In this document: piece by piece, positions 8,554 to 16,910 of the stretch
Numbering within the stretch: position 1 is the stretch's first letter
Layout of the letters: each line of letters opens with the position of its first letter
NCBI GenBank assembly: GCA_030668875.1
Contig: DAOVER010000024.1
Span: 12,428 to 44,427 of the forward strand
Source of the DNA: Candidatus Heimdallarchaeota archaeon
GTDB lineage: Archaea; Asgardarchaeota; Heimdallarchaeia; Heimdallarchaeales; Heimdallarchaeaceae
Direction: 5' to 3'
DNA: 32,000 bases
Position numbers and translations under genes: made by a program
Notes under the pieces: model-generated
The model's input: the letters and a program-made list of their open reading frames with translations, nothing else
What the model was told of the DNA's origin: nothing
Database searches by the model: none

Positions 8554-9384
8554 CTACTTAAAGGTAGCTCTTGCAGATATTATATGTGGACTTACTCCTT
8601 TTTGGAATCGTACTATAACAACATTGTTTCTGGAAGAATTTTTACCATGAATGCGTGATATTGTACCAGTTAATTGCTTACCTGATTTAACATAATTTAT
8701 GCTTACCTTTCTTCCTAAATAACTGCTAATTGGCAATTCAATATCATGAAGATGTAAAATTACAGATCTATTAGTTGATTTACCTGATGCATCATGAAGC
8801 ACAGAATGGACAATTCCATATGTCTTAGACAAAGTAACTTTCTTCTTAGCTTTTGCTTTCTTTTTAGAAGTTTTAGATTTTATCTTTCGCATAGCTTTTG
8901 CTCTTTCAATATACTTTACAGTAGCTGGCGAAACACCTTTCTTCACGGCAATAGTTGCTTTGGGTTTGACTACAGGTTTCTTTGTTTCAGATTTTACTGC
9001 GGGTTTTTTAACAACGGTTTTCTTTGCTGGAGTTTTAGCGGCTAGTTCAGGTTTTTTAACAGATGGTCGCACGGATGTTTTCTCTACTTCTTTCTTCAAA
9101 GTGGGAGGTTTAGGTATTGTTGCTTTATCTACTGTTTTTACTTTGGATTTAACTTCAGTTTTCTTTGCGGGTGCTTTAGCAACAGGTTTTTTAGCTGGAG
9201 TTAATACTTCGTTTGCACCTAGAATCATTTTTTCAGCAGTTGATTTTCCTATACCAGGTAATTGTGATAACTCGTCTGCTGAAGCTTTGGCTAGTTTTTC
9301 AACTGTGTTGAAACCACAATCTACAAGAGTTTTAGCTGCTTTGGGTCCAATTCCTTTAATATTCTCTATTTCGTTAATTGCCAT
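8554..9384 (-). CDS. rpl35ae: fusion of a helix-hairpin-helix domain, a Lys/Pro/Ala-rich linker and a ribosomal protein eL33 (L35Ae)-like domain
   Basis: Two HhH motifs (KGIGPKAA, LPGIGKSTA) in aa 1-61. The C-terminal 90 aa (YLGRKVSINYVKSGKQLTGTISRIHG...VRFQKG) match the archaeal L35Ae pattern (LIGRxVxW.SPSGK...GKI.RVHG..G.VRARFEKG). Confidence 0.75.
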   Translation of the reverse strand: MAINEIENIKGIGPKAAKTLVDCGFNTVEKLAKASADELSQLPGIGKSTAEKMILGANEVLTPAKKPVAKAPAKKTEVKSKVKTVDKATIPKPPTLKKEVEKTSVRPSVKKPELAAKTPAKKTVVKKPAVKSETKKPVVKPKATIAVKKGVSPATVKYIERAKAMRKIKSKTSKKKAKAKKKVTLSKTYGIVHSVLHDASGKSTNRSVILHLHDIELPISSYLGRKVSINYVKSGKQLTGTISRIHGKNSSRNNVVIVRFQKGVSPHIISARATFK

Positions 9385-12302: not shown

Positions 12303-13724
12303 TTATTTATTCAATCGATCCAGAATCTCATTCATTAACATAAGGAGTTTTTCCATTGTATTCTTACCGATGTCTATTGATTTTCCAGGTTCATGGAATA
12401 GAAGATTACGCTTAAACCTTATTTCATGTAAAAGAGTAACCTCATCTTTTGTTAACATTTTATTCTTTTCTAAAATGTCAATCAGTTTTAAGAAGTTAAT
12501 TTCATCGTCTTCAACATCTGTCTTTATACTTGACAATGAACGTCTAAAAATTGTTTCAAGACTTCTGTAGATTAGAAGAAAAGATAAGGTTTGTTCTTCA
12601 CTTCTGATTTTATCCCATTTTACAATTTTTTCTTTAATATAATCTATATCAGCTTTAATTGCTTGCTCTTCATCTGAAGTAAGAATTTGGCTTGATATTA
12701 AATGAGCTAATGGATCATACATGAATTGCTTTTCTATTTTCTCTTTTGTTGCTTTAGGAATATGAATTTCCTCTAAAACCTCTTTATATAACTTCCATGC
12801 AATAGATTTTGCCATTTCATCTCGAGAATACCAGGAAATTGTCTCAACAAGTTTTGTAAAAAGAAGCTGTTTCTTAGCTTCATCAATAATCCCAAAAAGC
12901 TCTCTTTGTGTTCTTCGCACAAATAGATTGCTGATTGGGAATTCAGCAATTGCTAATATTTGTAAAATTCTTTTTTCTCTTTCCTCCTCTGGTTCAAAAT
13001 AGATTATTGGAAGAACTCGAGGAATTAATGAACACAGGTTCCTTGAGGAAGCATACAAGAGATATAAGCTAAATCCTAGTAGAATTCCAAATACACTTGC
13101 AAAGATAATCACATTTGTTAGATTTGATATCTGATCAAGTTCAATGAAATCCAGTTTAATAATAGTAAATCTCATAATTATTACAAGAATAAAATTAAGT
13201 AAGAGTAAGCTTGATGATACGAAGCTAAAAAGAAATAAAGACTCATTATATGTTAGTAATTTTTCATTTCTTGTAGTGTGTGATCGATCTATGAAATTTT
13301 GACTATACTGACTTTGCGCTTCCTTGGTTAAGTCTGGTATTAAGTCATGTTTTATCTTTCTTTCCAAGAGCTCTTGTTCATCTTTTTTTAATTTTATCTC
13401 CATAGAAATAAGTGGGACTGCTTTCTCTTGAAATCTAAATTTTCTTGGTTTTAAGAAAATTTTGTCGTAATTCAAAGTAAGATTTCGAGTTATATGCTTC
13501 TTCACTCCACCTATTTGGAAAAGTAATCTTGGTGTTAACAAATATAGAAAAAGAATTGGGATAACTAAAAATGTATAGAAAAGAATTGCTGAAAACTGAA
13601 AATCACCTGTTCTAAGTCCAGTGTACACAATATAGACTAAAAGTTCTAGTAACAAAGGCAAAATTAATCCAAAACCCACTCTGATAAGTAGGGGAACTAT
13701 ACTTGAATTCGACCTAGTACTCAT
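12303..13724 (-). CDS. 4-TM membrane protein with a C-terminal HEPN (DUF4145-like) domain
   Basis: Two TM hairpins; C-terminal helical domain with YRSLETIFRR and EIRFKRNLLFH (R-x4-H at 12393-12410). The ORF track extends to TTG 13772; ATG 13724 is preferred. Confidence 0.7.
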   Translation of the reverse strand: MSTRSNSSIVPLLIRVGFGLILPLLLELLVYIVYTGLRTGDFQFSAILFYTFLVIPILFLYLLTPRLLFQIGGVKKHITRNLTLNYDKIFLKPRKFRFQEKAVPLISMEIKLKKDEQELLERKIKHDLIPDLTKEAQSQYSQNFIDRSHTTRNEKLLTYNESLFLFSFVSSSLLLLNFILVIIMRFTIIKLDFIELDQISNLTNVIIFASVFGILLGFSLYLLYASSRNLCSLIPRVLPIIYFEPEEEREKRILQILAIAEFPISNLFVRRTQRELFGIIDEAKKQLLFTKLVETISWYSRDEMAKSIAWKLYKEVLEEIHIPKATKEKIEKQFMYDPLAHLISSQILTSDEEQAIKADIDYIKEKIVKWDKIRSEEQTLSFLLIYRSLETIFRRSLSSIKTDVEDDEINFLKLIDILEKNKMLTKDEVTLLHEIRFKRNLLFHEPGKSIDIGKNTMEKLLMLMNEILDRLNK

Positions 13725-13799: not shown

Positions 13800-14882
13800 T
13801 CAAGATTCTAAATTGTCTTGCAGTAATTGCTCTTTCAATAACTCTATTTCTTGTTCTATACGATTTATCTCAGTACATTCTCCTTGATTCAACTCTTTAA
13901 GATCATGTAAGCAGACTAATTGTAGCCTTTCAATTCCTTCAGCAGAATAGCTCTTCATTTCTTCCTTTAATGACATCTTTCCTAGTTCAAGCATTTTAGC
14001 AAGATTCCAATCAGGCGGATATCTATCAATTTTCTCTGCAATTTTACTGAAGAAAAATGGAGCTTGAAAAGCTAGTCCATAATGACCATTATCCAAAAAC
14101 TTCTGGCTCTGGGTTAGTAGTTGTCCTAACTTGAAGTGTGAAGAAATGGTTCTATTTTCTATAACGTCATCTTTCATCACATTGAGCAAAGCAATTAGTT
14201 TAACAATTTCTTGCACATCAATAGGGTTCTGAAAGAGAATAGGAGATATAATTTTCTTTCCTTTTAAGTTCTGACTCTTTCCAGAAGATGTGTTTTCACT
14301 GGAAATTTTTACAATTTTATCATTATCACTTATACGTAGAAAGGCAGTTTTATTTGAAATTCTAAATAACTCAATTAAATTCTTTCTTCCATTTAATCGT
14401 AGTAATTGTATTTTGAATCTATTTATCCATTTATCATAATAGAATAAATTAGATGTTATGTTACCTTTTTGACCCACAAATGTTGTTAAAGGATAATTAT
14501 AATAAATCAATAATTCGATTCTCCATGGCTCAATAAACAAATAAGTAGGAACAACTATTATCTTATCATTAATACATTGTTTTAGAGCCATTTCAAAAGC
14601 AATAATTTCGTTTTCACTAATATTCTGTTCTAGCTCCAGAACTTTGATAGGCAAGTCCAATTGGTTGATTTTGTCACAATCTATAATGTCATTTTTTGGG
14701 ACAGTTAAGATAATTTCACTTACGAATTTCTGTAAAAGATGAATCTTTTTGAAGATTAAAGCAATTGAATCTTCATCTACAGTATAACAAAATATGATAC
14801 CGGATATGCTAGTTCTATCTATCCTATGTTTAGAAATTTTCTCTTGTGCTTTTTCTAGTAGATTTCTTAACGAACTATGCAT
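13800..14882 (-). CDS. divergent MobA-like (nucleotidyltransferase/GT-A fold) protein with a helical C-terminal extension
   Basis: Follows mobB with a 1-nt gap. AFEMALKQCINDKIIVVPTYLFIEP resembles MobA G..xALxxxxxDxVxVxxCDxPFI, but the LAGGxxxR loop is absent. Confidence 0.5.
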   Translation of the reverse strand: MHSSLRNLLEKAQEKISKHRIDRTSISGIIFCYTVDEDSIALIFKKIHLLQKFVSEIILTVPKNDIIDCDKINQLDLPIKVLELEQNISENEIIAFEMALKQCINDKIIVVPTYLFIEPWRIELLIYYNYPLTTFVGQKGNITSNLFYYDKWINRFKIQLLRLNGRKNLIELFRISNKTAFLRISDNDKIVKISSENTSSGKSQNLKGKKIISPILFQNPIDVQEIVKLIALLNVMKDDVIENRTISSHFKLGQLLTQSQKFLDNGHYGLAFQAPFFFSKIAEKIDRYPPDWNLAKMLELGKMSLKEEMKSYSAEGIERLQLVCLHDLKELNQGECTEINRIEQEIELLKEQLLQDNLES

Positions 14883-14883
14883 A

Positions 14884-15423
14884 TCAATCCTCTGTTCTGT
14901 TATTTACAAAGTAGGAATAAATATCATCTGTATCGAATAGAACAACTGTAGAGAGGTTTTTTTCAAGTTTTTTTAAGTCCTCTGAATGGTTGTTGTATTT
15001 ATCCTTTTGACAATAAATTAGTTTGAGATTAGCAAGATTGAATAAAGTGATATTTTCCTTAAAATCTTCAGACCAAACAAGAATTTTATCATATTCCTCA
15101 TCTTTGTAACCTTCTACCAAAATTATGTCAGGATCACTCAATGACTGAATATTCTTTAAAAGTTCAAACAAAGGGGTTTTCTTATTTGTTGTAATTTGTG
15201 TTATATTTGAAAAAGAGACGGTGGAAGATATAGCTCCTTGTGTAAGAAATTTGTCAGAATCTTTATCAGAGGAGCTTATAGTATGACCCCTAGCAGATTT
15301 TATTGTTGCTACAGATAGATTTTGTTTTTCGAAAAGTTTTAACATATCAAGAATTAAGCTTGTTTTCCCAGAATTTGAAAGACCCACAACCTGTATAATT
15401 CTTGATTTCTTCATTTTATCCAT
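14884..15423 (-). CDS. mobB: molybdopterin-guanine dinucleotide biosynthesis protein B
   Basis: IIQVVGLSNSGKTS, VATIK, DKDSDKF...GA and DIILVEGYK motifs. Confidence 0.88.
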   Translation of the reverse strand: MDKMKKSRIIQVVGLSNSGKTSLILDMLKLFEKQNLSVATIKSARGHTISSSDKDSDKFLTQGAISSTVSFSNITQITTNKKTPLFELLKNIQSLSDPDIILVEGYKDEEYDKILVWSEDFKENITLFNLANLKLIYCQKDKYNNHSEDLKKLEKNLSTVVLFDTDDIYSYFVNNRTED

Positions 15424-15471: not shown

Positions 15472-15500
15472 AAAAAAATAGTTTTGAGGATTTAATCCTC
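15472..15500 (-). terminator. hairpin plus U7 tract terminator
   Basis: The minus strand after the TAA TAA stops reads GAGGAT-TAA-ATCCTC-AAAACTA-TTTTTTT. Confidence 0.5.
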
Positions 15501-15503
15501 TTA

Positions 15504-16910
15504 TTATTCCCTAATTAAGGTATTTGCACCATAGATAAGTTTCTTTGCTGAAGTTATCCCTATACCTCTTATTTTGCTTAATTCTTCAGGTTTAGAGTTT
15601 GCAAGCTGATCAATTGTTTCAACGCCACCATCTTTAAGCAACATAGCAATTTTTTCTCCAACTCCTGATATATCTACTATCCTCAGTTCAGCTTTCTTAT
15701 CTGTAAAAATTTCAGTTGAATCTATTGTTTCTTCTCCATCATCAATAATTTCTATTTCGAATGGTAGAGTTTTTTTTGCTTTAATTGAAGGTTTACTTAC
15801 AGACGGGAGTCTTCGAGTTTTCTTTCTTTTACTTCCTGGAGGTGCAGGGATTTTATCTATCTCAGGATCTATCTTCCTCACAGGATGAATAAAAGCTTCA
15901 GATTCATTTCTGATAAGTTCACTCGGCTTTCGAAGATGCTCAACTTCTTCAAATACAGTTTCCTTATCCTTAAGATAATCTGAAGGTTTTAACAGTCTCT
16001 CACTTTTAGGAGGAGTTAGCTTCTGTTCAACTATTTCTTTTTTCTTGGTTGGTTGTTGAACAAGTTTCTTAGTTTTTGTTTCTGTTTTTACTGTTTCAAT
16101 AGTTTTCTCATGTGAGAGTTCGCTTGGTTTAACTGTTGTATCAGCCACTGCATCGATTGTTTCTCGCTTTTTCAGATACTGTGTGGGTTTGAGTATGTCA
16201 ACAGATTCAACCTTTTTCTCTTTTTTGGGTGAAGGTTTTGTAACAATTGGATCACCCATAATTTTCTTTGGAGCTTTGGGTTTAATTGCTTCTGGCTCAA
16301 AAATTGTATCGCGTTTCTTAATAACATCACTTGGCTTAAGTAGAGTATTTACAAGAGGTGCTTCTGGTTCTTCTTCCTCTTCTTCTACTTTCACTGGAGG
16401 CATTATTGTTACACTAGGAGATATTATCTCGTCTTTTTTAAACAGTTCACTGGGTTTAACAATTTCTGAAGCTGGAGATACAAGACTTTCAACGTCAGTT
16501 GTCATTTCTCTTTTCTTTGAAACAGATTCAAGAGGTTCTTGTACAACTTTGGCTTCTCTAATATCCAAACCAGAAGAGTGCAATGAGGCACCTTTACCCA
16601 AGTTTCTTACTAGTTCAATAAGTTGATAGAAATTGATATTTGTAATACCTACATCTGAAAAATATTCTGCTAACCAGTTTGCAAAACGGTGGACATTTAC
16701 CTCAGATCCTAGCATTTTTTCCCAAAAATTCATTATTATCGTTGTAAGTTGATCAAATGAAGAATATTTATGAGTCTGTGTTATATGTTTACCATCATAT
16801 AAATCTAGAACACCTGTCATGTGCTCACTAAATACATTCTCATTTGGTTTGATGACGACACTATATCTATAACTTCCAATCAAACTTCTACGTTGTGGTC
16901 GCGATGACAT
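15504..16910 (-). CDS. protein with a globular N-domain, a long low-complexity region bearing six KPS(E/D) repeats, and a C-terminal helix-hairpin-helix domain
   Basis: HhH motifs ISGVGEKIA and IRGIGITSA; repeated (L/V)KPS(E/D)xx(K) motif in a Lys/Glu/Pro-rich region. Confidence 0.85.
   Translation of the reverse strand: MSSRPQRRSLIGSYRYSVVIKPNENVFSEHMTGVLDLYDGKHITQTHKYSSFDQLTTIIMNFWEKMLGSEVNVHRFANWLAEYFSDVGITNINFYQLIELVRNLGKGASLHSSGLDIREAKVVQEPLESVSKKREMTTDVESLVSPASEIVKPSELFKKDEIISPSVTIMPPVKVEEEEEEPEAPLVNTLLKPSDVIKKRDTIFEPEAIKPKAPKKIMGDPIVTKPSPKKEKKVESVDILKPTQYLKKRETIDAVADTTVKPSELSHEKTIETVKTETKTKKLVQQPTKKKEIVEQKLTPPKSERLLKPSDYLKDKETVFEEVEHLRKPSELIRNESEAFIHPVRKIDPEIDKIPAPPGSKRKKTRRLPSVSKPSIKAKKTLPFEIEIIDDGEETIDSTEIFTDKKAELRIVDISGVGEKIAMLLKDGGVETIDQLANSKPEELSKIRGIGITSAKKLIYGANTLIRE

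Follow-up and report, generated by a model that had tools for sequence, protein, structure and literature searches.

A 468-residue protein of Candidatus Heimdallarchaeota archaeon carries six copies of a motif that is conserved throughout its family, distributed along a disordered spacer that joins an N-terminal domain to a C-terminal (HhH)2 domain. We propose that this protein is a nucleic-acid-anchored, multivalent scaffold, a reading to which we give an even chance of being right. Coordinates refer to the window, i.e. the whole 32,000-nt stretch of DNA that was analysed (assembly GCA_030668875.1, contig DAOVER010000024.1, forward-strand positions 12,428 to 44,427).

Results

Architecture of the motif protein

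The gene was delimited from its open reading frame and translation and occupies positions 15504..16910 on the minus strand, on which all the parts of the protein described below are therefore encoded. AlphaFold2 (AF2), run on an alignment of 41 sequences, divided the chain into three regions: aa 10-105 and aa 410-467 were modelled with confidence and the middle was disordered. The spacer of about 300 residues (aa 107-403), rich in K, E, P and S, was mostly predicted at pLDDT below 50. A homologue search covering 5.8 billion proteins returned 47 homologues, all of which share this build of N-domain, motif-bearing spacer and (HhH)2 in the homologue alignment; those that are named are annotated as 'helix-hairpin-helix domain-containing protein' of Candidatus Heimdallarchaeaceae or Heimdallarchaeota. 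Literature and full-text searches gave no description of the motif or the protein, and matches to the motif string were antibody framework sequences or unrelated.

Six motif copies in the disordered spacer

A sequence-only reading of this DNA had listed six decamers between positions 15906 and 16463. All six are present in the translation at the residues given for them, and their outer limits agree exactly with that interval. We scored each copy with a position matrix built from the orthologue copies. Copy 1 (IVKPSELFKK, aa 150-159, 16434..16463) reaches 28.9 bits and has an aligned copy in orthologues. Copy 2 (LLKPSDVIKK, aa 190-199, 16314..16343) reaches 41.0 bits, with L190, L191, P193 and S194 invariant in the 41 sequences, and copy 3 (ILKPTQYLKK, aa 239-248, 16167..16196) reaches 35.3 bits, with P242 and Y245 invariant in the same alignment. 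Copies 5 (LLKPSDYLKD, aa 306-315, 15966..15995) and 6 (LRKPSELIRN, aa 326-335, 15906..15935) score 41.6 and 29.0 bits. These five strong copies thus range from 29 to 42 bits, and copy 4 (TVKPSELSHE, aa 259-268, 16107..16136) is degenerate, since it scores only 13.5 bits; only its P-S is kept family-wide. Four of the KPS sites, those of copies 2, 3, 5 and 6, are followed by short helices in the AF2 model (197-201, 242-255, 309-318 and 329-336, pLDDT 50-66). The spacing had been called irregular, which is correct overall, as copies lie 16 to 126 residues apart in the family proteins, but not throughout: two pairs are separated by 20 residues, and one of them (aa 308/328, copies 5 and 6) is fixed across the family at 20-21 residues.

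A spacer rich in K, E, P and S might produce such strings by chance from its low complexity, and repeated copies might likewise be the remnants of a recent DNA duplication. We consider this explanation virtually negligible. None of 20,000 residue shuffles of aa 106-400 attained six copies of the pattern [LVIR]KP[ST][EDQ]xx[KRSH], the mean being 0.01 copies per shuffle, and KP[ST] alone occurs eight times in this segment as compared to 0.76 expected. The copies had also been described as divergent in DNA sequence, and we find them to be about 50% identical, with proline encoded by CCC, CCA, CCT and CCG and serine by AGT, AGC and TCA. The use of all four proline codons and of both serine codon families, together with this low DNA identity, indicates that conservation acts at the protein level and that no recent duplication is involved. 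Finally, the motif was found in all 47 homologues, down to 30% identity. Absence of the motif from orthologues, or a frequency no higher than in shuffled sequence, had been named as grounds for giving up the proposed motif; given the orthologue conservation and the shuffling result, neither applies.

The number of copies per family protein varies from one to six, with a mode of five (strict pattern); 51 of 52 proteins have two to six copies and the remaining one has a single copy. Mean column conservation is 0.68 in the motif and 0.45 in the rest of the spacer. A logo was derived from 220 distinct motif instances in the family proteins. The core proposed earlier, (L/V)KPS(E/D)xxK, is retained in this logo, but the conserved unit is longer and spans about 19 residues: PPx(D/E)x-LL-KPSE-(Y/L)LK-x-(R/K)ETI. 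Upstream of the core, PP occupies positions -7/-6 and D, E or N position -4, followed by L (72%) and again L (55%; L or V, 80%). The core consists of K (84%), P (100%), S (94%, with T in 5%) and E (72%; E or D, 83%), and it is followed by Y/L/V, L/I/F, K (75%), any residue, R/K, E/D, T and I/V.

A position occupied by Ser in 94% and Thr in 5% of the instances, next to one that is acidic in 83%, might be a modification site, whose phosphorylation by a kinase of the organism would switch the behaviour of the spacer. A kinase site would require far less than the approximately 19 residues conserved here, which include two hydrophobic pairs and the PP, and a serine placed just before a helix can also be explained as a helix cap. 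We thus see only a slim chance that the copies are primarily modification sites; phosphorylation is nevertheless compatible with the scaffold, in which the motif would be a regulated docking site.

Likeness to actin-binding motifs

The sequence-only reading had also compared the motif with the actin-binding WH2 motif. An actin-binding array of WH2 or RPEL type would account for a multivalent and disordered region such as those of MRTF, Spire and similar proteins, and there is a loose likeness between LKK(R)ET and the thymosin/WH2 sequence LKKTET, or between [KR]P..E.L and the RPEL sequence RPxxxEL. WH2 is an amphipathic helix of about three turns followed by an extended LKK[TV]. The comparison fails on this order of elements: in the motif protein a helix, where one is predicted, begins after KPS and covers LKK, and the upstream PPx(D/E)xLL is proline-rich and extended. 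The spacing of RPEL, in which the RPxxxEL core lies between two helices, is not reproduced either, since [KR]PSE[YL]L falls two residues short and the first of these helices has no predicted counterpart. Furthermore, none of the 41 members gave a Pfam match to WH2, RPEL or thymosin at E<=10, profiles of such short motifs being insensitive. Actin binding of either type therefore appears very improbable to us. We also considered a membrane-binding amphipathic helix and rejected it, as the six helices do not exceed shuffled sequences in hydrophobic moment.

Other conserved islands of the spacer

The motif copies are not the only conserved segments of the spacer. Directly C-terminal of the N-domain, the island GKGxSLxSSGxxIREAKV (aa 105-122, 16545..16598) has near-invariant columns, and its residues 107-120 were modelled at pLDDT below 50. 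The conservation profile also reveals a proline-rich island, KIDPxxxxIPxPP (aa 346-357, 15840..15875), in which P349 and P357 are invariant or nearly so, as well as GDPxVTxP and, in agreement with the alignment, LPFEIE (aa 383-388, 15747..15764). The IPxPP core of the proline-rich island presumably resembles, by sequence likeness, the MIM2-type peptide of crenarchaeal CdvB that binds the MIT domain of Vps4.

The motif is private to one protein family

Apart from this open reading frame, the 3.2-Mb genome contains no occurrence of the motif by strict regular expression or by position matrix, the next best score being 12.3 bits. When the spacer alone (aa 140-345) was compared with 5.8 billion proteins of 257-819 aa, only this family was recovered and the motif appeared in no other architecture. 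The motif thus belongs to this protein family alone. Classical short linear motifs (SLiMs) are common to many unrelated client proteins. The motif resembles those catalogued in ELM by its disordered location and by forming an island of conservation kept in orthologues, and differs from them by its restriction to a single protein where several unrelated clients would be expected. The SLiM-type docking scaffold proposed in the sequence-only reading is thus borne out as far as disorder, conservation islands and repetition are concerned, and is weakened by the privacy of the motif.

The N-terminal domain

The earlier description of a globular N-terminal domain of about 105 residues is corroborated by AF2, which models this region (aa 1-105, 16596..16910) at a pLDDT of approximately 90; the domain modelled alone reached a pLDDT of 85 and a pTM of 0.77. 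Three long strands (16-22, 33-39 and 42-49) and a short edge strand are followed in the model by three helices. The domain matched no Pfam or NCBIfam family, and fold searches returned nothing convincing (VIA against the PDB, best Z 4.9 over 69 residues; Foldseek against the PDB, E>=0.029; viral structures of BFVD, E>=0.031), nor did a comparison with the ESM Atlas give a usable match. Several of the weak fold matches are winged-helix or HTH DNA-binding domains.

A search with the N-domain found only 26 representatives among 1.84 billion proteins, with identity falling to 38-45%. Among 300 genomes sampled across the phylum, 53 contained N-domain matches, all but two of these genomes belonging to the same class. 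Matches at the level of orthologues (E<=5e-24) were confined to one GTDB family, Heimdallarchaeaceae, where 26 of 27 genomes contain one and the last has a paralogue match only; the corresponding open frames measure 223-562 aa, the shortest of them lying on short contigs. The weaker matches are paralogues that have the same domain, always N-terminal, in front of different tails.

One type of tail extends over about 400 aa and gave no Pfam match in the copies scanned. This genome has one such copy (G000:C74, 520 aa, L021:5468-7030, plus strand), whose N-domain is 28% identical and is followed by about 400 aa matching neither Pfam nor NCBIfam; a 201-aa ORF lies upstream and stops a single base short of the start of G000:C74. 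Proteins that resemble it and measure about 520-560 aa are widespread in the order and the class. Other paralogues (L057:2532-3218, L058:2447-3130, L060:5413-6213, L061:331-780 and P0060), from other lineages of the Heimdall class, carry variant tails, and among the tails observed are a short basic one ending in KKRAPRKK and long acidic repeats (ATEEEAE...). The end of P0060 shows a sub-threshold HTH_NPRL3-like match (23 bits for a cut-off of 27.2).

A pattern search detected no motif in the N-domain paralogues with other tails, and the orthologous type of N-domain has additional invariant residues of surface type (GKH, N78 and D86) that the paralogues lack. This co-occurrence raises the question of self-association, whereby the motifs would bind the N-domain or the HhH of the same protein, in cis or in trans, and lead to autoinhibition or to a DNA-bound network or condensate instead of recruiting a foreign partner. 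Such a scheme would be consistent with a motif that is private to this protein and occurs only together with the orthologous type of N-domain, never with the paralogous ones, and GKH, N78 and D86 set that type apart. The chain modelled at full length contains both elements, yet AF2 docked the motifs with confidence on neither the N-domain nor the HhH and left them at pLDDT 50-66. Moreover, the N-domain falls to 38-45% identity and the motif is better conserved. We consider self-association unlikely, although it has to be taken seriously.

The C-terminal (HhH)2 domain and its relatives

The C-terminal HhH assigned from sequence is supported by a match to PF14520 (HHH_5) over aa 412-459, with 45.4 bits for a cut-off of 27, and by AF2, which models aa 410-467 (15510..15683) as an (HhH)2 domain at a pLDDT of approximately 90. 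HHH_5 was matched in all 41 aligned members, and both of its phosphate-binding G-hydrophobic-G hairpins (G416-V-G418 and G449-I-G451) are intact and invariant in the 41 sequences. Other domains were looked for in these members and only HhH-type families of Pfam (E<=10) and HhH-containing families of NCBIfam were found. With the full model as query, Foldseek likewise returned only HhH domains, the matches including the N-domain of RadA/Rad51 and the AR domain of NusA (rmsd 0.8-2 A over 56-62 residues); profile matches in the PDB were Pyrococcus furiosus Rad51 (2.8e-7) and the HhH of Haloarcula marismortui L32e (5e-6). The N-terminal (HhH)2 of RadA/Rad51 is the closest match in both structure and sequence, but the motif protein has no recombinase core and its (HhH)2 is C-terminal. 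In a subgroup of homologues of 526-551 aa (P0015-P0025, P0029, P0035 and P0036), a second, duplicated HhH is present at the C-terminus, so that the anchor is doubled.

An HMM of the family HhH was used to search this genome and identified the ribosomal proteins uL24 (3e-22), uS4 (7e-20) and eL33 (5e-17) as well as a helical protein of 239 aa, well ahead of RadA (1.6e-7). The four genes are located at L054:755-1531 (minus strand), L055:741-2018 (plus strand), L056:658-1377 (minus strand) and 8554-9384 of the window (minus strand), the eL33-HhH fusion being the one inside the window. These HhH fusions were confirmed by Pfam and by BLASTP (43% identity). In all four proteins the HhH is carried on a disordered tether, which in uS4 is formed by a KPEVKKETP repeat, and the ribosomal-protein tethers contain no KPS motif. 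The presence of the same HhH subtype on four other proteins of the genome indicates that one HhH 'head' is reused by this organism as a putative addressing module. A comparable arrangement is known for haloarchaeal eL32, which has an N-terminal HhH (PDB 1JJ2/1S72) and shares with uL24, uS4 and eL33 the HhH subtype and the long disordered tether. The motif protein differs from these ribosomal proteins in that the other end of the tether bears a domain of unmatched fold and that the tether itself has conserved motifs instead of simple charged repeats.

Since uL24, uS4, eL33 and the motif protein have this HhH subtype in common, they may share a common target. The motifs could accordingly be auxiliary contacts that help the HhH to engage nucleic acid or the ribosome without docking any protein, a possibility suggested by the tethering of the same subtype to uL24, uS4 and eL33. 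With its acidic residue, its hydrophobic core and its small net charge, the motif is unlike known nucleic-acid-binding repeats, and the ribosomal tethers do without it. We regard auxiliary contacts as decidedly unlikely.

Genomic neighbourhood

The order CTL-like membrane protein, motif gene, MobB and 360-aa protein recurs at six loci drawn from four genera, in one of them although the further flanks are rearranged. In the window, MobB is encoded at 14884-15423 (minus strand; TIGR00176, 89 bits, cut-off 76.2) and adjoins the ORF of the 360-aa protein (13800-14882, minus strand), which occurs in 26 of 27 genomes and is confined to the family just as the motif protein is. Weak leads connect the 360-aa protein to an NTP-transferase or MobA-like fold (atlas, 0.82; PDB 2xme, E 0.22). 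They are too weak to bear on its function, though a degenerate MobA acting with MobB is one possibility. The stop codon of the motif gene is immediately followed by a hairpin GAGGA..TCCTC with T7 (15472..15500, minus strand), as read in the DNA; it is probably the gene's own transcript end, and an A/T-rich stretch lies between it and mobB. The hairpin with T7 and this stretch make co-transcription with mobB doubtful. We therefore did not retain an operon link to MobB in this genome; in the relative L022 the ORFs overlap. Because the synteny extends broadly throughout Heimdallarchaeaceae and because of the hairpin and T7, MobB and the 360-aa protein were not treated as partners of the motif protein.

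Discussion

In the scaffold that we propose, the (HhH)2 would serve as an anchor that grips duplex nucleic acid irrespective of its sequence, as the family membership of the domain suggests. Each motif copy would be a docking site for one and the same globular partner, consisting of a proline-rich lead-in, the extended LL and then a short helix capped by Pro-Ser (YLKKRETI). Combined with the anchor, these equivalent docking copies would allow one anchored molecule to gather several copies of the partner, and the N-domain would add a further function, possibly oligomerisation or docking. Either a core protein of the cell or the protein's own N-domain could be this partner. As the motif is near-invariant in proteins that otherwise diverge to 30% identity, the surface of this partner should be strongly conserved. 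Three considerations count against the scaffold: AF2 placed the motifs with confidence on neither the N-domain nor the HhH, the genome encodes no second protein with the motif, unlike typical SLiMs, which many clients share, and some related HhH domains, e.g. the AR domain of NusA, bind proteins and not nucleic acid. A more specific version, in which a DNA-anchored array captures several copies of a conserved cellular component such as actin (the target of RPEL and WH2 arrays), ESCRT/Vps4 or the HhH heads of the ribosomal proteins, seems improbable to us.

Short linear motifs within extended disordered segments are a mode of regulation usually associated with eukaryotes and considered rare among prokaryotes. 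The eukaryotic arrays of RPEL (MRTF/Phactr), WH2 (Spire/Cobl) and BRC (BRCA2) motifs are similar to the scaffold in presenting several conserved motifs of 15-35 residues, irregularly spaced in a disordered region and predicted here, as in those arrays, to form a short helix; BRCA2 in addition combines its array with a nucleic-acid-binding domain in one chain. The motifs themselves are different, the logo having no RPxxxEL, no helix-then-LKK[TV] and no FxxA, the last being the Rad51-binding core of BRC. In contrast to the eukaryotic arrays, the motif protein comes from a single archaeal family and its motif is private. The principle of coupling multivalent motif arrays to a tethered binding domain is therefore already known from eukaryotes; what is new is an archaeal, family-specific version of it, the motif, and the unmatched fold of the N-domain.

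Heimdallarchaeia are the closest archaeal relatives of eukaryotes. The motif protein provides, in this archaeal class, a clear and strongly selected example of a disordered-region motif, and it combines the motif array with an N-domain that has no convincing match in the fold libraries searched and with a putative nucleic-acid anchor that is also hung on ribosomal proteins. If the capture of a conserved component were true, a multivalent motif regulator or an organiser of condensates, in the style of eukaryotes, would have arisen within Heimdallarchaeia. The motif makes a clean bait, since it is short, hardly varies and is confined to one protein. The interest of the system would rise sharply if the partner were a cytoskeletal, ESCRT or ribosomal component, and knowing this partner would tell us whether multivalent motif scaffolds are already at work on the chromatin or the ribosomes of Heimdall archaea.
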